From Bacteroidales bacterium (GTDB taxonomy: Bacteria; Bacteroidota; Bacteroidia; Bacteroidales; VadinHA17): a DNA stretch of 64,000 nucleotides. The stretch is taken from contig PLML01000004.1 of NCBI GenBank assembly GCA_003141525.1, positions 787 to 64,786 of the forward strand. The letters are read 5' to 3'. The notes below the pieces were generated by a model. It was not told the DNA's origin. It did no database searches and saw nothing but the letters and a program-made list of their open reading frames with translations. The position numbers were made by a program, and so were the translations under genes. Shown in pieces: positions 1,671 through 61,167 of the stretch (its first letter is position 1; the number at the start of each line of letters is the position of its first letter).

Positions 1671-2004
1671 ACAATTTGATATCTGGATTGCGGATCTCGT
1701 ACCACAACGAGGAACAGAAACCGGCAAAGTAAGACCTGTTTTAATTGTTCAAACCAACCTTTTAAATAACGTGCACCCATCTACTTTTATTTGTCCCATT
1801 ACAACCAATGTAGAGAAAGACAGCGATATATTAAGGGTTCATATAAGAAAGGGAATCGCAAATCTCAAGATTGAATCTGATATTATGATTGATCAAATCA
1901 GAGCTATTGATAACAGAAGATTGTTAAATAAAATTGGCGAACTGACAAAAGAGCTTCAATTAAAAGTTAAGGATAATATCAAAATAATTTTTGATCTGGA
2001 CTAG
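1645..2004 (+). CDS. mazF: PemK/MazF-family toxin (mRNA interferase)
   Basis: FDIWIADLVPQRGTETGKVRPVLIVQTN...ICPITT...IMIDQIRAIDNRRL are classic MazF/PemK motifs. The true start may be an internal Met a few codons in. Confidence 0.8.
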   Translation: MKISMMKIKQFDIWIADLVPQRGTETGKVRPVLIVQTNLLNNVHPSTFICPITTNVEKDSDILRVHIRKGIANLKIESDIMIDQIRAIDNRRLLNKIGELTKELQLKVKDNIKIIFDLD

Positions 2005-2015
2005 CTCAATTGTTA

Positions 2016-2051
2016 AGGAGAAAGTAAGTAAAAAGTAAAAAGTAAAAAGTG
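2016..2051. repeat. left arm C (AAGTAAAA units)
   Basis: The sequence aggagaaagtaagtaaaaagtaaaaagtaaaaagtg is the inverted partner of 2697-2739. Confidence 0.75.
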
Positions 2052-2205
2052 TTTATTTATTATGAAGGAGAATGATTTAAAGGAACGTTTATTCCGTTTT
2101 GCGGTTAATGTGTTAAAAATGCTCGGAACATTAAAAGGGGGAAAAGAGACAGATGTTATAAAATATCAATTATCAAAATCAGCTACTTCATCTGGCGCTA
2201 ATTAT

Positions 2206-2493
2206 TCACCCTGTCAAATTGCATCAAATTGTTAAAAGATTTTTATTGTACATATGTTTTAAGGAGTTTGACCGATTTCAAATTTTACGTTGGTTTTACA
2301 TCAGATTTGATGCAAAGATTTGAGGCGCATAACGCGGGTAAAGTACCTTCAACCAAAAATCGGAGACCTTTTGAAATTGTATACTTCGAAGGTTGTCGCT
2401 CAAAAGAAGATGCAATTAATCGAGAGAAATATCTGAAAACATTTTATGGGAAGATGTTTTTGAAAAACCGCCTCAAATCTTATTTGACTGGGT
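2206..2493 (+). mobile_element. 288-bp GIY-YIG micro-element with inverted termini CCCTGTCAAAT/ATTTGACTGGG
   Basis: The left end is tcaCCCTGTCAAAT (2209-2219) and the right end is ATTTGACTGGGt (2482-2492). It carries only the 88-codon GIY-YIG ORF and sits precisely inside a conserved host codon block. Confidence 0.75.
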
Positions 2494-2495
2494 AG
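2229..2495 (+). CDS. small GIY-YIG nuclease family protein
   Basis: YVLRSLTDFKFYVGFTSDLMQRFEAHNAG...REKYLKTFYGKMFLKNRL carries the GIY/YIG, R and E motifs of the UPF0213-like single-domain GIY-YIG proteins. The start is non-ATG (TTG) in the track. Confidence 0.85.
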   Translation: MLKDFYCTYVLRSLTDFKFYVGFTSDLMQRFEAHNAGKVPSTKNRRPFEIVYFEGCRSKEDAINREKYLKTFYGKMFLKNRLKSYLTG

Positions 2496-2696
2496 AGAAT
2501 CTCAATCTGGATCCTCAAAGGCAGATTTTGCGAATAAAGTGAGAATTTCATTGCGAGAAATGCGCGAATCAAATTATTGGTTACGAATTATAAAGGAACT
2601 TTTCCCAAAAACAGAAAATATTGTATATTTAGTTGGCGAAAGCGAAGAGCTAGGAAAAATTCTTGCTTCAATTCTAATAAAATCACGGAACTGACT

Positions 2697-2739
2697 CATT
2701 CTTTACTTTTACCTTTTTACTTTTTACTTTTTACTTTAT
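2697..2739. repeat. right arm C
   Basis: The sequence cattctttacttttacctttttactttttactttttactttatc is the reverse complement of the AAGTAAAA units. Confidence 0.75.
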
Positions 2740-2814
2740 CCCACTTTTGTCTTGTGACTTTTGTCTTTTATCTTTAACCCCACTTTTGTCTTGTGACTTT
2801 TGTCTTTTATCTTA
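2740..2814. repeat. right/outer arm A, present as a 38-bp tandem duplication
   Basis: cccacttttgtcttgtgacttttgtcttttatctt occurs twice (2740-2776 and 2778-2814). It pairs with 833-877. Confidence 0.8.
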
Positions 2815-2825
2815 AACATAATATA

Positions 2826-3608
2826 ATGAAGCACCTCACCCTCATACTATCTACTGCCTTACTTCTGGCCGCTTCCTGTACCAGCCAAAAGAAACTAGCG
2901 TATCTGAATAATCTCCCCGAGCCAAAAGGTGAAGAGTCGTTTAACATGTCTATCCCGGACTATAAAATCCAGCCGCGCGATATACTTTATATTTCAGTAA
3001 AAGCTATGGCCCCTGATGGTTCAATTAAAGATTTCTTATCATCTGGTAGTAATAACGGGATGTACTTAACACAGGGTGATGCAGGAGGGGCTTTTATGGG
3101 CTATAATGTCAGCCCGGATGGGTACATTACACTAGTGCCAATTGGACAGATAAAAGTAAGTGGTCTTACACTGGAGGAAACCAGAAAAAAACTGCAGGAA
3201 TTAACAGAAAAAGTCTTCCTAAACTCAACTGTAGAATGTAAATTGCTCAGTTTTAAATTTACGGTGATTGGAGAAGTCAAAAGTCCGGGAGCATATATCA
3301 ATTACAATAATTACCTGACTGTTATTGAAGCAATTGGACGCGCCGGAGGAGTAGGCGACTTAGGAAACAGGAACCGGATCCTGGTTGTTCGTCCGATTGA
3401 TAAGGGAACCAAAACCTATAGAATTAATCTGCAGGATAAAAATATTCTTACATCAGAAGCATATTTTCTTCTTCCAAATGACGTGGTAATAGTGGAACCG
3501 GTGAGACAGAAGATCTTTAACATGAATGTGCCGACTATTTCTTTTGTAATCTCAACCTTCACAGCAACAATTACGATGACACTTTTGCTCATTAATTATT
3601 TGAAATAA
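2826..3608 (+). CDS. wza: polysaccharide export outer-membrane lipoprotein (Wza/BexD family)
   Basis: Lipoprotein signal MKHLTLILSTALLLAASC. Poly_export/SLBB-like motifs are PDYKIQPRDILYISV, GYITLVPIGQIKVSGLTLEE and VIGEVKSPG. The track ORF start at 2793 translates the repeat arm, so I use the Met at 2826. Confidence 0.85.
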   Translation: MKHLTLILSTALLLAASCTSQKKLAYLNNLPEPKGEESFNMSIPDYKIQPRDILYISVKAMAPDGSIKDFLSSGSNNGMYLTQGDAGGAFMGYNVSPDGYITLVPIGQIKVSGLTLEETRKKLQELTEKVFLNSTVECKLLSFKFTVIGEVKSPGAYINYNNYLTVIEAIGRAGGVGDLGNRNRILVVRPIDKGTKTYRINLQDKNILTSEAYFLLPNDVVIVEPVRQKIFNMNVPTISFVISTFTATITMTLLLINYLK

Positions 3609-3612
3609 AAAA

Positions 3613-3668
3613 TTCTAAGTTCAAAGTTCAAAGTTCAAAGTTCAATGTTCCAAGTTCCATGTTTAAAG
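3613..3668. repeat. left arm D (CAAAGTT units)
   Basis: The sequence ttctaagttcaaagttcaaagttcaaagttcaatgttccaagttccatgtttaaag is the inverted partner of 4361-4400. Confidence 0.75.
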
Positions 3669-3837
3669 ACATATTTATATGAAGATAGAGAAGTTTGAAG
3701 ATCTGGAGATTTGGCAAGAAGCCAGGGAGTTATGCAAAAGAGTCTTTGAAATAACTTCCGTCAGTCCGTTTTGCAATGACTTTAAATTTAGGGATCAGAT
3801 CAGAGCTTCATCTGGATCAGTAATGGATAATATAGCC

Positions 3838-4127
3838 TGCCCTGTGAAATAGCAAGATGTATTATGTATATATACTTATAAGCGAAAAAGATAACATGTT
3901 TTATACAGGTTATACATCAGACCTTGAAAATCGAATAGAAGAGCATTTGAAAGGGAAAGTAAATTCTACTAGGCACAGATTGCCTTTAAAGCTTGTCTAC
4001 TATGAATGTTCTATTAATCAGGATGATGCGCTTCATAGAGAGAAATATCTTAAAAGTACGTATGGCAAACGATATATTAAGAACCGTTTAAAACATTTTC
4101 TAAATGAGTAAATATTTCACAGGGCAA
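3838..4127 (+). mobile_element. 290-bp GIY-YIG micro-element with perfect 13-bp inverted termini GCCCTGTGAAATA
   Basis: GCCCTGTGAAATA at 3839-3851 and TATTTCACAGGGC at 4113-4125. The only cargo is an 84-codon GIY-YIG ORF. Confidence 0.8.
3857..4111 (+). CDS. small GIY-YIG nuclease family protein
   Basis: [30 protein letters not shown]...[18 protein letters not shown] is a paralog of the 2229-2495 product. Confidence 0.85.
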
Positions 4128-4360
4128 GAAGGCTTCGAACGTGGTGGAAATAAAGAGTTTATCCAGTTTCTGAGTATTGCCAAGGGATCTTGTGGTGAAG
4201 TCCGTTCACAATCTTATCGATCATTTGACTATAAATATATTAACCAGGAAATTTTGGATGAACTTATTTCCAGAACAATGCAACTAAGCAAGAAAATCTC
4301 ATCACTTATAGGATATTTGAAAAATAGCGAATTTAAAGGCTCAAAATTCCATACCTCATA

Positions 4361-4400
4361 ACTTTGAACCTTGAACCTTGAACATTTAACCTTGAACCTG
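4361..4400. repeat. right arm D
   Basis: The sequence actttgaaccttgaaccttgaacatttaaccttgaacctg runs directly into the wzc start codon. Confidence 0.75.
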
Positions 4401-6838
4401 TGACCATGGATCCAAATTATCCCTCCCCCCCTCAGCCAAACCTCCCCGAGGACGACAACCTCGACATAAAAAGATATCTAACTCTGTTCATGAGCAACTG
4501 GTACTGGTTTGCAATCTCATTATTTATTGCACTGACAGTTGCCTATGGCATAAACAGGTACTCCAGTAAACTATATACTATTTCGTCAACACTCATGATA
4601 AGTGATGACCAGTATTCAGGGTCGAGCAGAATTGTAAGCAGCGCAATCCCCGGAGGAGATATTTTCAGGAGCAAGCCAAACATAACAAATGAAATATCAA
4701 TACTGAAATCTTTCAGCCTCAATAAAAGAGTAATAGACTCATTACCCGAATTCAGGGTGGCATATTATGGTGTCGGAAAAAGAAACATCGCTGAGACCCA
4801 GCTTTATAAAAACTGTCCTTTCAGGGTAACATCAGAATCTGTTGATGTTCAGCCTAAAAATGTAAGAGTAAATATCATTATAAGTTCTGCAACAACTTAT
4901 TCACTGGAAATTAATGGGAATAAGAATGTTGAAAAGGACCTTAAATTTGGCCGGCTCTTCAGTAAAGATGGTTTTAAATTCATTATTGAATTGAGAGATC
5001 CGAATAATTTTAAATTTAATCCTAAAGTATCAAATAAATACTATTTTTATTTTACATCTTCTGACGAACTGGCAAACAATTACAGGGCAAATCTGAGTGT
5101 GGCACCGATTGAAAAAGATGCCACTATTGTTAATTTATCTAAAGTAGGTCTGGATCCGCAGCAGGAAGCTGATTACCTGAATAAACTTATGGAAGTATAT
5201 AGAAATCAGGGTTTGGAATCTAAGAATCATATTGCTGACACTACAATTGCTTTTATAGATAAACAACTCGGCTTTGTTGCAGATTCTCTTAAAAAGGCCG
5301 ATAATAAACTTCAGAGATTAAGACTTGACAACAAATTGATTGACCTCGGTAAGGATGGCACTCTTTTACAAACTCGTTTAGAGAAGTTTGCGAATGAAAA
5401 AGTATCCCTTAAGCTTCAATATTATTATTTTCAATATCTGAAAGAATATCTTGACACCAAAAACGAATCGGGTGATATTGTTTCTCCGAATGTTATGGGA
5501 ATTACCGAACCGACGTTAGGAAAACTGGTTCAGGAACTTTCAGAACTCCAGAAAAAGAAGAAAGAGATGTCTATGAACCTTTCAGCGGAGGTGCCGCCGT
5601 TAAATCTATTAACTGAAAACATACACAAAATAAGAATGGCTCTTACCGAGAATATAAAGAGTAGTTTTGCCAGTATAGAACATTTAATTGACGATTCAGA
5701 AAAAAATATAGAAGAGGTGAACCAGGAGATAAATAAACTTCCGGGAACCGAAAGTAAGAGGATAGGTATTCAGAGAGACTTTGATATAAGCAATACTGTT
5801 TATACCTATCTTCTTGAGAAAAGAGCTGAAACCGGTATTGCAAAGGCTTCAAATGTCCCGGACAGCAAAATTGTTGATTATGCAAATATCATTAATACCG
5901 TCCAAATTAAACCAAAGCCAGGAGGGAACAATTTAAAGGCATTACTTTTTGGCATATTAATTCCCGCGGTCATTTTATTCTTATTATATTATTTAAATAA
6001 CAAAATTATCGACAACGGGGACATTATTAAAAAAACAAATGTACCGATAATGGGGTATGTCAGTCACAGCGAATTTAAAAAAGAGATCCCTGTTATTGAT
6101 AACCCGAAATCAGCTCTTTCAGAATCATTCCGTTCAATCAGAACATCTTTACGATATTTTACAAAACAATCCAGCCATTCTGTTATTGCCATTACATCCA
6201 CTATAAGCTCGGAGGGGAAAACTTTTATATCAATTAATCTTGCAGCAATAACGGCACTGCTTGGTAAAAAAGTATTATTAATCGGTCTCGATCTTCGGAG
6301 ACCAAGGATACACAAAATCCTGGGGATTGACAATAGCGAGGGTCTCAGCACCTATTTAATAGGTAATTGTGAATATAAAGAAGTTATAAAGGAAACATCA
6401 TTAAAGAATCTGTATTATGCTACTTCCGGACCAGTACCCCCAAATCCGGCTGAACTGCTAGAGGAGGAAAGGATGGATGCATTTATTGTGAAAGCGAAAA
6501 AGGAGTTTGATTATATATTTATAGATACCCCACCGATTGCGATAGTTTCAGATACTTTATTAATTGCCAGGTTTGTAGATGTTAATCTTTTTATTGTGAG
6601 GCAGAGGTATACCTCAAAAAATACATTGGAATTAATTGAGGAATTATACAAGGATGAAAAACTTAAACACATGGGGATTATTATTAATGATATAAGCCTT
6701 ACAGGTTATTATGGGTATGGGATAAGATACGGCTATTATAAGGGTTATGGATATTCATACGGTAAAAACTACTATGGGCAGTATTCTTACAGCCGGTACG
6801 GATATTCAGATAAAGAACATGGATATTATAATACTTAA
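4400..6838 (+). CDS. wzc: chain-length determinant / tyrosine autokinase (Wzc/GumC family)
   Basis: 812 aa with a Wzz-like periplasmic coiled-coil region and two TM segments. Walker A is SEGKTFISINLA, followed by DLRRP and IDTPP. The C-terminal tail is Tyr-rich (YYGYGIRYGYYKGYGYSYGKNYYGQYSYSRYGY). The start is GTG 4400 or ATG 4406. Confidence 0.9.
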   Translation: MTMDPNYPSPPQPNLPEDDNLDIKRYLTLFMSNWYWFAISLFIALTVAYGINRYSSKLYTISSTLMISDDQYSGSSRIVSSAIPGGDIFRSKPNITNEISILKSFSLNKRVIDSLPEFRVAYYGVGKRNIAETQLYKNCPFRVTSESVDVQPKNVRVNIIISSATTYSLEINGNKNVEKDLKFGRLFSKDGFKFIIELRDPNNFKFNPKVSNKYYFYFTSSDELANNYRANLSVAPIEKDATIVNLSKVGLDPQQEADYLNKLMEVYRNQGLESKNHIADTTIAFIDKQLGFVADSLKKADNKLQRLRLDNKLIDLGKDGTLLQTRLEKFANEKVSLKLQYYYFQYLKEYLDTKNESGDIVSPNVMGITEPTLGKLVQELSELQKKKKEMSMNLSAEVPPLNLLTENIHKIRMALTENIKSSFASIEHLIDDSEKNIEEVNQEINKLPGTESKRIGIQRDFDISNTVYTYLLEKRAETGIAKASNVPDSKIVDYANIINTVQIKPKPGGNNLKALLFGILIPAVILFLLYYLNNKIIDNGDIIKKTNVPIMGYVSHSEFKKEIPVIDNPKSALSESFRSIRTSLRYFTKQSSHSVIAITSTISSEGKTFISINLAAITALLGKKVLLIGLDLRRPRIHKILGIDNSEGLSTYLIGNCEYKEVIKETSLKNLYYATSGPVPPNPAELLEEERMDAFIVKAKKEFDYIFIDTPPIAIVSDTLLIARFVDVNLFIVRQRYTSKNTLELIEELYKDEKLKHMGIIINDISLTGYYGYGIRYGYYKGYGYSYGKNYYGQYSYSRYGYSDKEHGYYNT

Positions 6839-6883
6839 GGTTAAGGCCAAGTAAGGTTAAGGTTAAGGCTAAGGTTGAGAAGA
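6836..6883. repeat. left arm E (AAGGTTAAGG/GTTGAG units)
   Basis: The sequence taaggttaaggccaagtaaggttaaggttaaggctaaggttgagaag begins on the wzc stop codon. Confidence 0.8.
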
Positions 6884-6897
6884 AGAATAAATAAAAC

Positions 6898-7254
6898 ATG
6901 ATTTACATAAGTTTTACTGAAATGCCAGTTTGGCAGAAAGCACATAAGCTTGCAATTGAAGTATTTAATCTAACAATTAATCTTCCAAGGTCTGAAGATT
7001 ACGGATTGACATCCCAGATTCGTAAATCATCAAATGGAGTAGCTGCCTGTATCGCTGAAGGATTTGGAAGAAGTACTAAAAAAGACAAATCAAATTTTTA
7101 TATAATTGCACGGGGTTCCTCATTCGAAACCCAGAACCATTTATTATATAGCAACAAAGTTGGTTATTTTGAAACTCAAATTACTCAACGTCTTTTTGAT
7201 GAGTATAATGAGCTCATTTACGAGTTGAATAAACTTATTAAATCCCTGGAATAA
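6898..7254 (+). CDS. four-helix-bundle protein (23S rRNA IVS protein family), NIAEG-like subtype
   Basis: 118 aa with MPVWQKAHKLAIEVF, SSNGVAACIAEGFGRSTKKDKSNFYIIARGSSFETQ. Confidence 0.85.
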   Translation: MIYISFTEMPVWQKAHKLAIEVFNLTINLPRSEDYGLTSQIRKSSNGVAACIAEGFGRSTKKDKSNFYIIARGSSFETQNHLLYSNKVGYFETQITQRLFDEYNELIYELNKLIKSLE

Positions 7255-7278
7255 GACAGGAACTAAGGTTTATGGATT

Positions 7279-7368
7279 CTCAACCTCAACCTTAACCTCA
7301 ACCTTAGTAACCTCAGCCTCAACCTCAACCTCAACCTCAGTCTCAACCTCAACCTCAACCTTAGCCTC
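7279..7368. repeat. right arm E (CTCAACC/TTAACC units, about 90 bp)
   Basis: The sequence ctcaacctcaaccttaacctcaaccttagtaacctcagcctcaacctcaacctcaacctcagtctcaacctcaacctcaaccttagcctc is the reverse complement of arm E but longer. Confidence 0.8.
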
Positions 7369-7439
7369 ATTTTATGGTTATAACAATAAAAAGTCAACAT
7401 TTATCACTATTTTTGTGGTTATAATCTGGTAAATTAAAT

Positions 7440-9367: not shown

Positions 9368-9508
9368 ATGGAAAAGAAAAATGACCTTTGCGAAAGGCTT
9401 TTTGAATTTGCAGTAAGAGTCATTGAATTTTTGAAAACATTATCCTATTCACCTGAAAATAAAACTATTCGGACACAACTGTCAAAAAGCGCTGATTGGA
9501 TTAGTTGA
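9368..9508 (+). pseudogene. 5' fragment of a four-helix-bundle gene (GANY subtype)
   Basis: MEKKNDLCERLFEFAVRVIEFLKTLSYSPENKTIRTQLSKSA is nearly identical to the 13474 copy. It then diverges and stops (DWIS*). Confidence 0.75.
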
Positions 9509-11988: not shown

Positions 11989-12123
11989 CAAAACTGTAAT
12001 TGTTCCTTGCCCTGTGAAATAGCACAAAGCCCCCGCCCTGGCCATATTTCACAGGGCCGGCACCCCGGAAGGAAATCCCTATTGGTACTTTTCGTTCAAT
12101 AATAAGACAATCAGGATTAAACC
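11985..12123 (+). pseudogene. decayed HicA-like toxin gene
   Basis: It starts MTKL and then hits a stop. After the 49-bp insert is mentally removed, the same frame reads FVPSAPRKEIPIGTFRSIIRQSGL, a HicA C-terminal motif. The central dsRBD-like part is missing and the 3' end appears frameshifted. Confidence 0.45.
12010..12058. mobile_element. 49-bp miniature derivative of the 3838-4127 element
   Basis: GCCCTGTGAAATAGCA...ATATTTCACAGGGC has termini identical to the 290-bp element, with only about 20 nt between them. Confidence 0.7.
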
Positions 12124-13441: not shown

Positions 13442-13478
13442 TAAAGATAAAAGACAAAAGTCACAAGATAAAAGTGGA
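13442..13478. repeat. left arm A (third copy)
   Basis: taaagataaaagacaaaagtcacaagataaaagtgg is the exact reverse-complement style of the 32-bp ACTTTTGTCTTGTGACTTTTGTCTTTT motif. Confidence 0.8.
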
Positions 13479-13951
13479 AGAAAAGAAAAATGATTTGTGC
13501 GAGAGACTCTTTGAGTTTGCAGTAAGAGTAATTGAATTTTTAAAAACACTACCTTATTCCCCAGAAAATAAAACTATTCGTACGCAATTATCAAAAAGTG
13601 CTTGTTCGTCAGGAGCTAATTACTCGCCCTGTCAAATTGCATCAAATTGTTAAAAGATTTTTATTTTATATATGTTTTAAGGAGTTTAACTGATTTCAAA
13701 TTCTATGTTGGTTTTACATCAGATTTGATGCAAAGATTTGACAGGGTGAAGAGTCTCAAAGCGGTTCATCCAAGGCAGACTTTTCTAACAAAGTCAGGAT
13801 TTCCCTTCGTGAAATGAGAGAATCAAATTATTGGCTCAGAATAATTATAAGAACTGTTAAAGAAGTTAATGGGCCAGAACTCGACTACCTTATAAAAGAA
13901 TCAGGAGAACTCAAAAACATCCTTGGCTCTATAGTCCAAAAAACCAGATAA
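13474..13951 (+). pseudogene. four-helix-bundle gene (GANY subtype) interrupted by a 124-bp miniature element
   Basis: The 5' half reads (V/M)EEKKNDLCERLFEFAVRVIEFLKTLPYSPENKTIRTQLSKSACSSGANY (to 13623). The 3' half reads EESQSGSSKADFSNKVRISLREMRESNYWLRII... (13748-13951). Removing 124 nt restores the frame. Confidence 0.85.
13624..13747. mobile_element. 124-bp non-autonomous (MITE-like) derivative of the 2206-2493 element
   Basis: The termini are CCCTGTCAAAT (13627-13637) and ATTTGACAGGG (13736-13746). The interior equals the first ~115 nt of the full element, including the 5' part of the GIY-YIG ORF, with 6 mismatches by my count. Confidence 0.8.
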
Positions 13952-13956
13952 TCAAC

Positions 13957-13999
13957 CTCTTTTTACTTTTGTCTTGTGACTTTTGTCTTTTGTCTTTGA
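13957..13999. repeat. right arm A
   Basis: The sequence ctctttttacttttgtcttgtgacttttgtcttttgtctttga. Confidence 0.8.
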
Positions 14000-14052
14000 T
14001 CATTAAACCCTCAACGCCTCAACAAATAAACACATCAACCATTACCCACTAC

Positions 14053-59529: not shown

Positions 59530-59540
59530 GGAAGAAGTTA

Positions 59541-59604
59541 ATAAAGTACTTAAAGTACTTAAAGTGAGCTAAAGTAAATAGTGCTTAGAGTGAGTTAAAG
59601 TTAA
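59541..59604. repeat. left arm H (AAAGTACTT/AAAGTGAG units)
   Basis: The sequence ataaagtacttaaagtacttaaagtgagctaaagtaaatagtgcttagagtgagttaaagttaa. Confidence 0.75.
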
Positions 59605-59625
59605 TTATATTTAAAGTTTAGAGAA

Positions 59626-59985
59626 ATGGATAATAAAGAGTTTGGCAGGCAGCTAGAAAACAGAACAAAAAAGTTTGCAATTTGTGTTATAAGATTATCC
59701 GCGGCTTTACCAAATACTACGGAAGGGAAAGTCATTAGGAATCAATTTACAAAATCCGGAACAAGCATAGGAGCAAACTATAGAGAAGCTAACAGAGCCA
59801 GAAGCAAAGCAGATTTCTTTAGTAAAATAAAAATATGTGAAAGTGAGTCAAGTGAGACAGCGTACTGGTTAGAGATAATCCATGAGTTAAACTGGGTTGA
59901 AAACAACAAAACTGAAGAACTTCTTGCCGAAGCAAATGAACTGCTTGCAATTTTTACCTCAGCAGGTAAAACTTTAAAACTTTAA
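59626..59985 (+). CDS. four-helix-bundle protein (23S rRNA IVS protein family), GANYRE subtype, intact
   Basis: FAICVIRLSAALP and SGTSIGANYREANRARSKADFFSKIKICESESSETAYWLEII. This shows the uninterrupted target motif. Confidence 0.85.
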   Translation: MDNKEFGRQLENRTKKFAICVIRLSAALPNTTEGKVIRNQFTKSGTSIGANYREANRARSKADFFSKIKICESESSETAYWLEIIHELNWVENNKTEELLAEANELLAIFTSAGKTLKL

Positions 59986-60010
59986 GTACTTTAGTCACTC
60001 TAGTCACTTC
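59971..60010. repeat. right arm H
   Basis: The sequence actttaaaactttaagtactttagtcactctagtcacttc overlaps the last codons of the gene. Confidence 0.75.
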
Positions 60011-60015
60011 CTTTT

Positions 60016-60627
60016 ATGATCACTATTATTGATTACGGAATGGGCAACCTGAAGTCTGTTAAGAGAAAGATGGACAGAATAGGAGTAAAATCAATAATTT
60101 CATCGGATCCGGAAGAGATAAAAAAAAGTGATAGAATAATTTTACCCGGAGTTGGTCACTTTGCCAGAGCTGTTTCAGAAATTAAAAAGAGAGGATTATG
60201 GGATCTGCTTACGGAGCAGGTTTTAATGGAAAAGAAGTTAGTTCTAGGTATTTGTCTTGGCATGCAATTAATGGCAAAACACAGTGAAGAAGGCGATGCA
60301 GAGGGATTTGGATGGATCGATGCAAATGTCATAAGATTTAAAGTCTCTGATATAACAAAATACAAAGTCCCGCATATGGGTTGGAATACGATAATGCCGG
60401 TTAGAGATTCTTCATTATTTGAAAAGATAACTTTGGATTCAGAATTCTATTTCGTTCATAGCTATCATGTAAAATGCAATAATCCGGATGATATTTTAGC
60501 CGAAACTAACTATGACTTTTCTTTTACTTCTGTGTTTCAAACAGAAAACATTTTTGGCGTACAATTCCATCCTGAAAAAAGCCATGATGCCGGGGAAATG
60601 CTATTGAGAAATTTTGTTAATTTGTGA
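60016..60627 (+). CDS. HisH-like glutamine amidotransferase (LPS-locus paralog, WbuY-type)
   Basis: IIDYGMGNL, GICLGMQL (catalytic Cys) and FGVQFHPEKS. Confidence 0.85.
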   Translation: MITIIDYGMGNLKSVKRKMDRIGVKSIISSDPEEIKKSDRIILPGVGHFARAVSEIKKRGLWDLLTEQVLMEKKLVLGICLGMQLMAKHSEEGDAEGFGWIDANVIRFKVSDITKYKVPHMGWNTIMPVRDSSLFEKITLDSEFYFVHSYHVKCNNPDDILAETNYDFSFTSVFQTENIFGVQFHPEKSHDAGEMLLRNFVNL

Positions 60628-60659
60628 ATGGTGATTTGTAACTAGTAATTGGTAACTGG
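60628..60659. repeat. arm I-left (GGTGATT/AATTGGTAA units)
   Basis: The sequence atggtgatttgtaactagtaattggtaactgg starts on the base after the hisH-like stop. Confidence 0.75.
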
Positions 60660-60720
60660 TTTCCCTTAATAATATTCACTCTTTCATTAAAAATTTCTCT
60701 TTTAAAAAATAAAGGTTTTG

Positions 60721-60786
60721 TCGCCAATCACTAATTACCAATTACTATTCACCAATTACTATTCACTAATCACAAATCACTAAAGT
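60721..60786. repeat. arm I-right, copy 1
   Basis: tcgccaatcactaattaccaattactattcaccaattactattcactaatcacaaatcactaaag is the reverse-complement match to 60628-60659, with an internal 14-nt duplication. Confidence 0.75.
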
Positions 60787-60787
60787 T

Positions 60788-61141
60788 ATGAAAACCCATA
60801 AAGATTTAGACGTTTGGAATTATTCAATTGATCTTGTTACGGAATTATATCAAATTACTGCTAAATTCCCAAAAGAAGAAACCTATGGTTTATCTTCGCA
60901 GATGAGAAGAGCTGCAGTTTCAATACCTTCAAATATTGCAGAAGGGGCAGCACGAAATCACAAAAATGAATTTCGCCAGTTTCTTTATATTTCCCTTTCA
61001 AGCGCCGCTGAACTTGAAACTCAACTTATTATTTCAGAAAGACTTTCATATATCTCAAAAAACCAAAATGAAAATCTTATTGATAAACTTAACACTATAT
61101 CCCGAATGCTCCAGGGTCTAATCAAATCAATAAATCACTAA
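60788..61141 (+). CDS. four-helix-bundle protein (23S rRNA IVS protein family), NIAEG subtype, intact
   Basis: DLDVWNYSIDLV, RRAAVSIPSNIAEGAARNHKNEFRQFLYISLSSAAELETQL. Confidence 0.9.
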   Translation: MKTHKDLDVWNYSIDLVTELYQITAKFPKEETYGLSSQMRRAAVSIPSNIAEGAARNHKNEFRQFLYISLSSAAELETQLIISERLSYISKNQNENLIDKLNTISRMLQGLIKSINH

Positions 61142-61167
61142 TCACCAATCACCAATCACCAATCACC
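61133..61167. repeat. arm I-right, copy 2
   Basis: The sequence aatcactaatcaccaatcaccaatcaccaatcacc ends 3 nt before the hisF-like ATG. Confidence 0.75.

Follow-up and report, generated by a model that had tools for sequence, protein, structure and literature searches.

Single-domain GIY-YIG nucleases are among the commonest small genes annotated as 'hypothetical' in Bacteroidota, Patescibacteria and many other phyla. GIY-YIG and HNH homing nucleases occur as free-standing genes in phages, e.g., Seg and Mob of T4 and mobE, which splits nrdA in phage Aeh1 ('genes in pieces'), and homing nuclease genes are usually carried by self-splicing hosts. To our knowledge, GIY-YIG enzymes hydrolyse DNA and strand joining is not known in the superfamily; we also know of no miniature derivatives of the phage free-standing homing genes. 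The Ssn enzymes are hairpin-guided, site-specific endonucleases of single-stranded DNA (ssDNA), which cut only ssDNA beside a hairpin (PMC11893778), and the NTS-ssnA-NTS architecture of their genes was called 'identical to' that of an insertion sequence by the authors (Chenal et al. 2025, PMC11893778). GIY-YIG ORFs have also been reported within rRNA insertions of CPR bacteria (PMC11270868).

We studied a 64,000-nt stretch of Bacteroidales DNA (the window), in which a 288-bp element coding for a GIY-YIG nuclease and a 124-bp mini-element interrupt two paralogous genes, named here A and B. All coordinates refer to the window, all its features are given on the + strand, and L numbers denote related loci in other sequences. 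A search of the full-text literature did not find this family, or its targeting of PF05635 genes, described.

The interrupted genes and their inserts

Gene B consists of an N-terminal half (13474-13623), ending in GANY, and a C-terminal half (13748-13951), starting with EESQSGSSKADF, with the mini-element between them (13624-13747). In gene A the N-terminal half (2062-2205) is followed by the full-length element (2206-2493). Both inserts lay directly after the Y codon of GANY (TAT at 2203-2205 in A and TAC at 13621-13623 in B), i.e., at the same codon boundary, as had been claimed from a first reading of the sequence. Excision of 13624-13747 in silico gave GANY-EESQSGSSKADF, as in 114 of 120 uninterrupted homologues. 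The joined products matched the PF05635 profile with E values of 8e-14 (B), 1.6e-12 (A) and 1.6e-34 (C, a third paralog considered below), and the host protein scored 74.6 bits with TIGR02436 (cut-off 24). Genes A and B are PF05635 four-helix-bundle paralogs, members of a group with many diverged copies per genome. The insertion point GANY|E, homologous to NIA|EG (the bar marks the point), is a codon boundary in the most conserved PF05635 motif; with the insertion, the host reading frame ends after nine codons.

Occupied and empty alleles were both found for A-type and for B-type genes. Empty B-type genes amounted to more than 100 proteins at 85-96% identity to gene B (DNA in L104-107), and empty A-type genes to about 55 proteins at 72-88% (DNA in L109 and L111). 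The empty target reads GGNGCNAAYTAY|GARGAGTCTCA, as exemplified by L104 and by window positions 59770-59795; the latter belong to an uninterrupted paralog of the GANY subfamily (59626-59985), with its empty site TAT|AGAGAA between 59781 and 59782. The limits of the mini-element were set by comparison with the empty allele L104 (TAC|GAG), and no target-site duplication was seen between this allele and the occupied mini locus. The element boundaries, TC[AG]CCCTG...C[AT]GGGT, were unambiguous.

The full-length element is almost nothing beyond a single-domain GIY-YIG nuclease gene. Its sole ORF (2229-2495, 88 aa, TTG start) matched PF01541 with an E value of 2.4e-16 and ends in a TAG stop codon whose last two bases are supplied by the host; neither an HUH Y1 transposase nor TnpB nor a DDE transposase is encoded. 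The nuclease domain spans residues 6-75 of the 88, a Pfam profile search found no further domain, and the nucleases have one domain in 84-88 aa. The family-invariant residues Y9, Y20, G22, R30, H34 and E66 were all present in copy A. In the PDB it matched the UPF0213 proteins 1zg2 (E 4e-10) and 1ywl (E 2e-7), and TIGR01453 scored 22 bits, below its cut-off of 56. Selection on the nuclease gene was purifying, with dN/dS values of 0.04-0.20 among full-length copies.

The predicted fold of the full-length element has three helices, P1 to P3, that converge at one point. P1 pairs the left terminus (2209-2219) with the right terminus (2482-2492), which encodes Y-L-T-G of the nuclease; P2 pairs 2220-2229 with 2305-2314 (nuclease codons 26-29); and P3 pairs 2315-2327 with 2469-2481, i.e., nuclease codons 29-33 with 81-85. 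The 5' strand of P3 holds a first ATTTGA (2318-2323), and a second one (2482-2487) follows its 3' strand at once.

In a global alignment of 13624-13747 with 2206-2493, 116 of 124 bases were identical, with eight mismatches and one 164-bp gap. The left 118 nt aligned gap-free with seven differences, six of them inside 2209-2323, the number that had been counted there by eye. The two ATTTGA repeats form the edges of the gap, and the segment absent from the mini-element is 2318-2481 (equivalently 2324-2487). By alignment and predicted fold, the loss is exactly the P3 hairpin between its two flanking direct repeats, P1 and P2 being kept. The original prediction of an internal deletion at a shared ATTTGA thus held, with the addition that the removed segment is a complete hairpin. 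The left terminus and the start of the nuclease ORF were retained, as had also been proposed: the remnant (13647-13741; translation LLKDFYFIYVLRSLTDFKFYVGFTSDLMQRF) keeps the first 31 codons, with two non-synonymous and four synonymous differences from copy A, and runs out of frame past the deletion. The near-perfect hairpin of 21-24 bp expected from the first reading was found as well. The 12-bp inverted termini of the mini-element, whose ORF is truncated, extend into a 21-bp hairpin with a 3-nt bulge, formed by 13627-13647 (5' strands of P1 and P2) and 13723-13746 (3' strand of P2, the P3-derived bulge AAG, and 3' strand of P1). Its fold energy was -35.7 kcal/mol vs -19.5 +/- 3.1 in shuffled sequences (z = -5.3; 0 of 200 shuffles were as stable).

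The window has one copy of the 124-bp mini-element, and its 21-nt terminus occurred only at 2209 and 13627 (chance expectation 0). The mini-element is not an assembly artefact, because an independent metagenome contig (L091) carries an identical copy and four other lineages share the same junction.

Divergence of inserts and hosts, and a B-type tract in gene A

Inserts and hosts were not similarly diverged. Over the whole host gene, A and B were identical at 198 of 333 nt (59.5%), and 44 of the 74 codons for the same residue differed. The 69 nt downstream of the insert had 19 differences, with 2 of 23 residues changed, close to the earlier count of about 20 differences and the same two residues. 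The excess over the element was significant both for this downstream segment (8/124 vs 19/69, Fisher test, p=1.3e-4) and for the whole host gene (8/124 vs 135/333, p=3e-14). The proportion of synonymous differences was 0.24 in the retained nuclease ORF vs 0.77-0.85, i.e., saturated, in the host. The element's four synonymous differences all lie outside the helices; therefore, structural constraint is not the cause of this contrast. These comparisons showed the element to be much younger than the separation of its host genes and upheld the claim that the hosts diverged long before the inserts.

Gene A was a mosaic of the two host types. Diagnostic sites upstream of the element were A-type at 31 of 32 positions (31 A : 1 B), whereas the first 66 nt downstream had 1 A : 5 B (Fisher test, p=7e-5). 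The downstream sites at +17, +19, +20, +38, +62 and +75 were B-type and that at +58 was A-type. This B-type tract (2494-2568) abuts the 3' end of the element and ends between nt 75 and about 102 past it; the remainder of the gene (2569-2694) is A-type again from residue 35 of the C-terminal half. Within the tract the protein of gene A reads RESQSGSSKADFANKVRISLREM vs EESQAAVSKADF.NKVGISLKEM in intact A-type genes. B-type loci aligned to 2194-2606 of the window, with homology over 12 nt on the 5' side of the element vs about 105 nt on the 3' side. The element itself was 94-95% identical to elements in B-type genes and 89% identical to that of the A-type orthologue L103.

In five of nine occupied B-type lineages the element is immediately followed by an AGA codon, which none of 116 intact genes has at this place (p=5e-7). 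The comparison of L001 with the empty B allele L104 for co-conversion (7/2 against 2/7) was not significant (p=0.057). An apparent A-like character of the first 57 nt after the L001 element was rejected, since it was seen only against gene B of the window, an outlier there, and was weak against L104.

Because gene A is A-type upstream of its element and B-type just downstream, the sequence comparison shows that the element reached it from a B-type donor, accompanied by about 75-100 nt of flanking sequence on the 3' side. The tract supports recombination-dependent homing, of which it has the signature, with putative cleavage by the encoded nuclease. With empty sites in both host types and the mosaic gene A, the original prediction that the same site was hit at least twice also stands.

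Distribution of the family and covariation of its helices

Five further B-type lineages (L001, with two copies, L094/95, L096/97, L098/99 and L100; L101/102 are cut-off copies of L098, not separate lineages) and one A-type lineage (L103) had full-length elements at the same site. In the lineage of the A and B elements, all copies found (14 distinct loci) lay at the single codon boundary. Minis with an identical junction were present in five lineages. In mini-mini pairs the element was more alike than the host flank in 10 of 10 (p<0.01 in six), the apparent similarity being slightly inflated because the minis were located by a 20-nt exact pattern. A neighbour-joining tree of the 124 nt gave 2% bootstrap for mini monophyly and supported no alternative grouping; the same-junction mini may have arisen more than once, or may have spread as a mini. 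Junction-pattern matches in L085, L089 and L092 lay in unrelated repeats and were discarded as chance.

A divergent family member, copy C (3838-4127), is without P2 and P3; its terminal inverted repeat is 14 bp long and perfect. Its ORF (3857-4111) is 50% identical in amino acid sequence to that of copy A and matched PF01541 with an E value of 9.6e-17. It is inserted in the third paralog (3679-4361) at the homologous codon boundary, DNIA|EG, and the C-terminal host half has an ATG at 4104 that overlaps the stop codon of the nuclease ORF. The termini of copy C recur (17 nt identical at the left and 14 nt at the right) in an ORF-less hairpin of about 51 bp (12008-12058), which is intergenic and outside the four-helix-bundle genes. 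Such ORF-less derivatives, 33-96 bp long and with the same termini as full-length elements nearby, were found at non-homologous sites: four in L013, three in L076, and one each in L071, L080 and the window (12008-12058). Because these derivatives occupy unrelated sites, they suggest that the family is also able to move without flanking homology. At some loci a right end is directly abutted by a left end. In L005 a duplicated 5' gene segment lies upstream of an intact gene and spares the host from damage.

The element family is widespread. Its observed targets were four-helix-bundle genes, the N-terminus of a short-chain dehydrogenase/reductase (SDR) gene and another GIY-YIG gene. Ribosomal RNA genes were considered as hosts of the Patescibacteria copies and rejected, no rRNA being present in 20 loci scanned (18 of them Patescibacteria). 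A tblastn search against plasmids gave four weak matches, of which the Azospirillum one served as the Ssn control (see below).

The predicted fold was then compared across 75 elements. Paired cells made up 95.9% in helix 1 (P1), 88% in helix 2 (P2) and 77.5% in helix 3 (P3), with compensatory changes in 6 of 11, 8 of 10 and 8 of 13 base pairs, respectively (22 of 34 overall). For all helices, 86.5% of the cells were paired, whereas shuffling left 73.8% and sliding of the partners 29-47%, and 304 cells had changed on both sides vs 90.6 +/- 7.8 in the shuffles; none of 500 shuffles matched the observed values. The three helices were thus shown to covary across phyla. No wobble signal of a sense RNA was seen, with 31 G-T vs 58 A-C mismatches and most of the excess coming from one clade. 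At the gathering threshold no Rfam family matched the window or 20 related loci, and a scan of 1900-4500 at E<1 gave only a weak match (E 0.38) to an unrelated family, IS009.

Routes of movement and known systems

We read the mini-element as a non-autonomous deletion copy of the 288-bp selfish nuclease element, and consider it probable that the latter is spread by homing. The nuclease of a full-length copy (e.g., 2229-2495) would break empty sites, with the cut probably on the 3' side of the insertion point, and repair of the break off an occupied paralog or allele would copy the element and its adjacent flank. The mini-element may have been born by slipped mispairing across the P3 hairpin, and could still be copied passively, with its occupied site as repair template and the nuclease acting in trans. 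The Ssn enzymes suggest, by analogy, folded single-stranded DNA as a possible substrate, and the element may move either by double-strand-break homing or in a single-strand, structure-specific way. Against homing, the 88-aa nuclease is without the DNA-binding domain of classic GIY-YIG homing enzymes, the ORF-less derivatives share their termini at unrelated, non-homologous sites in many loci, and the co-conversion comparison of L001 was not significant. Homing also does not explain the conservation of the three helices, including that of P1, which joins the exact termini. Translational bypass of the insert was rejected, there being no matching take-off and landing codons and a gap of 124-288 nt.

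A rather unlikely alternative is that the Ssn-like nuclease moves the folded element via a single-stranded intermediate in the style of IS200/IS605, recognising the folded P1-P3 or a target hairpin, with no need of flanking homology. The 124-bp copy would then be a genuine MITE, moved in trans, and the mosaic of gene A would reflect ordinary paralog recombination. The almost purely Watson-Crick covariation, with no sense-strand G-U excess in the mismatch counts given above, speaks for such movement, as do the absence of a target-site duplication, the ORF-less derivatives at sites without homology and the loci in which a left end directly follows a right end. The nuclease is, moreover, related to Ssn, which cuts only ssDNA beside a hairpin and has its genes in insertion-sequence-like units (PMC11893778). 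Against it, the one-sided B-type tract in gene A and the linked AGA codon fit recombination-dependent copying, all 14 A/B-lineage loci share one codon boundary, and the Ssn hairpin motif (SRM) had no match in the window. Strand joining is, moreover, an activity not known in GIY-YIG enzymes, which hydrolyse DNA.

We find it very improbable that the P1-P3 fold acts in the transcript like an intron, the element leaving the host mRNA by self-cleavage and ligation, or through host enzymes at the base of P1, so that the protein is still made. P1 does close the element precisely at its boundaries, the fold is conserved and covaries, exact removal gives back the consensus protein, and self-splicing hosts are the usual carriers of homing nuclease genes. 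However, the helix junction has no unpaired nucleotides for a catalytic core, the element is almost wholly coding and has no space for a group I or group II ribozyme, and Rfam gave no match at the gathering threshold in the window or the 20 related loci. Moreover, G-U was not in excess over A-C mismatches, the divergent copy at 3838-4127 is without P2 and P3, and the duplicated 5' segment in L005 would be needless for a spliced element. Hardly credible, finally, is the alternative named in the first reading, a single insertion before the A/B duplication; selection, or gene conversion limited to the insert, would then have kept the element alike. The copies do share their codon boundary, and some extra conservation is expected, as about 40 of the 118 shared nt are helical and the others coding. 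However, empty sites are frequent in A-type and B-type hosts alike, the divergence at synonymous positions outside the helices is about three times smaller in the element than in the host, and copy A is closer to the elements of B-type genes than to that of L103. The B-type flank adjoining the element, moreover, makes gene A a mosaic that one ancestral insertion with later gene duplication cannot yield.

Together with spread by homing as the preferred reading, we tentatively put forward the possibility, which we hold with less confidence, that the units of about 290 bp form a so far undescribed kind of minimal mobile element, with the nuclease gene doubling as the structured DNA on which the enzyme acts. 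If so, an Ssn-like nuclease would act on folded ssDNA, the closing helix of a three-helix junction forming the element termini, and the element would insert site-specifically and without target-site duplication in conserved motifs of multi-copy genes, shedding MITE-like hairpins. Ssn-type nucleases would then have a concrete role outside Neisseria, as mobility enzymes, and a 288-bp autonomous element would rank among the smallest known. The four-helix-bundle target genes are themselves stem-bracketed cassettes, which makes the element a parasite on a parasite, and its insertion explains many annotations of these genes as 'split' or 'pseudogene'. The locus supplies a defined target site and a covarying fold, ready for cleavage and mobility assays, and is a clean natural case of how the little-studied mini-nuclease elements move. 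As a tool, too, a site-specific mini-nuclease of known natural target would have clear value.

Several known systems share part of this organization. In ORF-less group I introns, deletion of the nuclease gene likewise leaves a structured remnant at the homing site, which stops re-cleavage and can be co-converted in trans; the mini-element differs in having no ribozyme match or sign of splicing. Like MITEs, it is short, with an incomplete ORF, both terminal inverted repeats, a stable hairpin and an autonomous copy in the same genome, but it has neither target-site duplication nor transposase and always lies at one codon boundary. IS200/IS605 elements, which PMC11893778 also discusses, likewise lack a target-site duplication, work through folded single strands, insert site-specifically and have small, abundant hairpin derivatives (REP/BIME); the B-type site happens to follow TTAC, the sequence that precedes IS608 insertions. 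They differ in their separate subterminal hairpins and HUH Y1 transposase, whereas the element described here pairs its own termini.

The free-standing homing genes of phages are similar in that a nuclease without intron or intein reaches a defined site and flanking markers are co-converted. As with mobE, the target gene is split, and the overlap of ATG and stop codon at 4104 recalls the genes in pieces. In contrast, the phage enzymes have a DNA-binding domain and 200-250 aa, vs 84-88 aa here, and their genes have no terminal inverted repeats or conserved fold and lie mostly between genes. Site polymorphism and co-conversion, both traits of classic I-TevI and Seg systems, were found here; the modular DNA-binding domain was not.

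The closest characterised relatives of the nuclease appear to be the Ssn ssDNA nucleases (cd10448). Profile comparison (hhalign) with Azospirillum WP_014249537 gave a probability of 98%, an E value of 4.5e-14 and 35% identity over 71 of 88 aa, although Ssn and UPF0213 matches were of similar strength. The Azospirillum gene is a bona fide Ssn-type gene, flanked by CGTCATCCCCGCGAAGGCGGGGATCCAG hairpins. In both systems a GIY-YIG protein with one domain and about 90 aa has inverted DNA capable of forming hairpins on either side of its gene, and short ORF-less hairpin derivatives occur nearby. They differ in the C-terminal ~20 aa, ...GKMFLKNRLKSYLTG here vs ...WNRDWKIRLIEEHNPDW in Ssn, and in the SRM/NTS motif (HGTCWY...RNCYNB), with no matches in the 64-kb window vs four around the Azospirillum control gene. 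The pairing described here spans long distances, runs into the coding sequence and makes a junction of three helices, whereas that of Ssn consists of local 28-nt hairpins outside the gene. Insertion here is site-specific and inside genes, with empty sites and co-conversion, while Ssn units resemble insertion sequences in architecture. Because it combines occupied and empty sites, co-conversion of the flank, purifying selection and non-autonomous deletion copies, the locus offers direct comparative evidence that a sister group of Ssn is actively mobile.

Four-helix-bundle genes and their inserts

Gene B (13474-13951), which encodes a four-helix-bundle protein of PF05635 / TIGR02436 (the family of 23S rRNA intervening-sequence proteins), is split behind the Y codon of GANY by a 124-bp insert, the mini (13624-13747), and its paralog gene A (2062-2694) carries a 288-bp full-length element (2206-2493) at the same codon boundary, as the original prediction had it. 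The gene A insert contains an 88-aa GIY-YIG ORF (2229-2495; PF01541, E 2.4e-16). A third insert (3838-4127) interrupts gene C (3679-4361) at the same column boundary of the protein alignment (DNIA/EG vs GANY/EE, the slash marking the insertion point), and its GIY-YIG ORF is 50% identical to that of gene A. The ATG at 4104, overlapping the nuclease stop codon of this third insert (ATGAGTAA), opens the C-terminal host half, so that gene C could be expressed as two pieces.

The family is present in the window as eight genes or gene fragments, the others being intact genes at 972-1334, 6898-7254, 59626-59985 and 60788-61141 and a truncated near-copy of gene B (9368-9508; 41/43 N-terminal residues in common) whose reading ends at SKSA/DWIS and a stop, short of the GANY site. 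Behind the same 135-aa neighbour, syntenic locus L104 has an intact gene in place of the truncated one. Each four-helix-bundle gene of the window is bracketed by a 24-38-nt inverted repeat of short tandem units, the unit varying by cassette (AAGTAAAA, AAGACAAAAGT, GTTCAAA, AAGGTT, GCGCAGA, AAGTACTT...). The genes therefore lie in stem-closed cassettes between polysaccharide-synthesis genes (908-1362, 2026-2737, 3608-4387, 6849-7372, 13442-14005, 59534-60010 and 60620-61163), like rRNA intervening sequences, and may themselves be mobile. Proteins 87-88% identical to the B-type protein of the window were found in MAGs labelled Desulfatiglandales and Epulopiscium (P0162, P0188), reflecting either cassette transfer across phyla or binning errors.

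Uninterrupted proteins of B-type (resembling gene B) number more than 100 in public data, at 85-96% identity, and those of A-type about 55, at 72-88%. Empty-site DNA of the B-type locus L104 (...AATTAC/GAGGAGTCTCAA...) and of L109 (...AACTAT/GAAGAATCTCAA...) fixes the element boundaries as TC[AG]CCCTG...C[AT]GGGT, and comparison with these empty alleles revealed no target-site duplication; the insert is a presence/absence polymorphism with exact boundaries. Five further B-type lineages have a full-length element at the same position (L001, with two tandem genes; L094/95; L096/97; L098/99, with L101/102 as cut-off copies of L098; and L100), as does one further A-type gene (L103). The last element base and two host purines together make up the nuclease stop codon (T/AG, T/GA or T/AA; 2493-2495, 13747-13749 and also the L096 junction), and termination therefore depends on a purine-purine start of the target codon.

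Origin of the element in gene A

The intact A-type sequence is GANY-EESQAAVSKADF.NKVGISLKEM, whereas gene A of the window reads GANY-RESQSGSSKADFANKVRISLREM, is B-type at 5/5 diagnostic residues and returns to A-type from residue 35 onward. Counted over diagnostic nucleotides, A-type and B-type states stand at 31 : 1 upstream of the element and at 1 : 5 within the 66 nt that follow it (p=7e-5), and +75 is a further B-type site. In blastn, homology of gene A with B-type loci extends from 12 nt 5' to ~105 nt 3' of the element. The element itself shares 94-95% identity with those in B-type genes, vs only 89% with that of the A-type orthologue L103. The element of gene A therefore came from a B-type donor and brought ~75-100 nt of 3' flank with it, a co-conversion tract on one side only, which is what break-induced homing predicts; a test of this kind on L001 did not reach significance. 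The AGA codon right after the element is a second flank marker travelling with it, being found in 5/9 occupied B-type lineages vs 0/116 intact ones (p=5e-7). The uninterrupted paralog at 59626-59985 has TAT/AGAGAA natively (59779-59787); gene A and five occupied B-type lineages likewise have AGAGAA directly after the element, whereas no intact B-type gene has it there, and the flank marker may have been donated earlier by the subfamily to which this paralog belongs.

The mobility of the element is well supported, and so is its independent gain by A and B, with B-to-A transfer plus flank, in line with the prediction that the same site was hit at least twice. Break-and-repair homing, a biochemical mechanism that we infer, is the probable driver of spread among four-helix-bundle genes. 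The main rival, a single-strand, structure-specific route like that of the Ssn nucleases, is possible and considerably less probable.

Fold of the element and formation of the mini

The full-length element is predicted to fold into three helices meeting without unpaired bases: P1 joins the termini (2209-2219 with 2482-2492), P2 pairs 2220-2229 with codons 26-29 (2305-2314), and P3 pairs 2315-2327 with 2469-2481. Inverted covarying termini bracket 80/84 ORFs examined. The structure is strongly supported by a 75-element alignment, with 86.5% of cells paired (vs 73.8% in shuffled controls and 29-47% with slid partners), two-sided changes in 304 cells (vs 90.6 +/- 7.8) and compensatory changes in 22/34 pairs. 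The gene C element lacks P2 and P3; its terminal inverted repeat, perfect over 14 bp (TGCCCTGTGAAATA / TATTTCACAGGGCA), lies outside the ORF. Mismatches gave no sense-strand G-U signal (31 G-T vs 58 A-C) and no Rfam family matched, so nothing points to an RNA-level role; splicing of the inserts is very unlikely.

Global alignment of the mini with the 288-bp element showed 116/124 identical bases and one 164-bp gap, bounded by ATTTGA at 2318-2323 and 2482-2487, the shared hexamer at which a jump had been proposed. That the mini is an internal deletion, as predicted, is well supported, exactly one hairpin being lost: P3, flanked by both ATTTGA repeats, which makes slipped mispairing across the hairpin between these direct repeats its likely origin; such a deletion could happen repeatedly. 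The mini hairpin described earlier was reproduced (21 bp with a bulge of 3 nt; z = -5.3). An assembly artefact was ruled out, the mini being present without change in the independent JGI contig L091, which matches the window at 99.3% identity over 3.6 kb.

Host genes A and B are identical at 198/333 bases of the codon alignment, and 44/74 of their same-residue codons differ; in the 69 nt downstream we found 19 differences (about 20 were predicted) and 2/23 changed residues. The synonymous difference proportion was 0.24 in the retained nuclease ORF, all four differences lying outside P1-P3, vs a saturated 0.77-0.85 in the hosts (element-vs-host Fisher tests, p=1.3e-4 and p=3e-14). The hosts thus diverged before the inserts, as first proposed, and a single ancestral insertion is very unlikely.

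Searching metagenomes for the deletion junction turned up 124-bp minis that share it in five lineages (gene B of the window, matching L091; L082/84/86; L083/88/90; L087; L093), all at the GANY site of B-type genes. Mini-mini identity, somewhat inflated because 20 nt of each mini were preset by the search pattern, was 86-97.6% vs 76-88% for the flanking host (p<0.01 in 6/10 pairs). The minis did not group together in a tree that was itself without resolution; either the deletion recurs, or minis swap sequence with full-length copies, or the mini spreads as such.

Other insertion sites and relationship to Ssn nucleases

The family is a large one with a wide distribution: scanning one genome per species yielded at least 581 relatives, in Bacteroidota, Ignavibacteriota, Patescibacteria, Verrucomicrobiota, Desulfobacterota, Planctomycetota, Bdellovibrionota, Gammaproteobacteria, Acidobacteriota and others. 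Our literature search found no earlier description of the family, its fold or PF05635 targeting, which is not proof of novelty. Four-helix-bundle genes host ~11/80 family loci, at two different positions. In a Flavobacteriia group the element is preceded by the opening 12 codons (MKRILVTGGAGF) of an SDR gene, and ~17 loci of Flavobacteriia and relatives have a common upstream VTGGAGF context. In Robertkochia marina (L005, 2445-2850) the opening 36 nt of a 319-aa SDR gene precede the element, and a complete copy of the gene with the same opening 36 nt begins 36 nt past it; this short 5' duplication keeps the host gene intact. The L014 element (2320-2445) lies inside a different GIY-YIG gene (...HKTKKYKNAFTARY/), at a conserved F-T-x-R-Y motif. 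A Saprospiraceae chromosome (L028, 2460-3800) has a tandem array of at least three full-length elements plus fragments; the same GGTGGTGCAGGGTTC (GGAGF) fragment precedes each element and is present five times within 1.3 kb.

Elements of 33-96 bp that lack the ORF but have family termini are found at non-homologous sites, often several to a locus. This speaks for an ability of the family to insert independently of flanking homology as well, for which homing alone does not account. Several of 58-96 bp flank a full-length copy at L013 (2250-2815), L076 (1726-2749), L059, L079 and L023. An intergenic ORF-less hairpin of ~51 bp in the window (12008-12058), outside any four-helix-bundle gene, shares 17 nt on the left and 14 nt on the right with the termini of 3838-4127, its interior being unrelated, and looks like a micro-derivative with copy C termini.

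The gene A nuclease is a bare catalytic domain; among solved structures it is nearest to UPF0213 proteins (1zg2, E 4e-10), and dN/dS values of 0.04-0.20 show purifying selection on the nuclease genes of full-length copies. Ssn is the closest characterised family found: a bona fide member, Azospirillum WP_014249537, which has the published hairpin on both sides of its gene, matched our family profile with 98% probability (E 4.5e-14, 35% identity over 71 aa). The C-terminus of Ssn differs from that of the present family, and the 64-kb window has no match to the published hairpin motif. Ssn proteins are 94-aa single-domain GIY-YIG enzymes that bind the hairpin repeat NTS/SRM and cleave only ssDNA adjoining it, and NTS-ssnA-NTS units have, according to their authors, an architecture identical to that of insertion sequences (PMC11893778). 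Among our ORF-less elements, a right end is in places directly followed by a left end (…GGGG-TTCA/TGAA-CCCC…), forming a local hairpin that recalls the Ssn NTS repeat.
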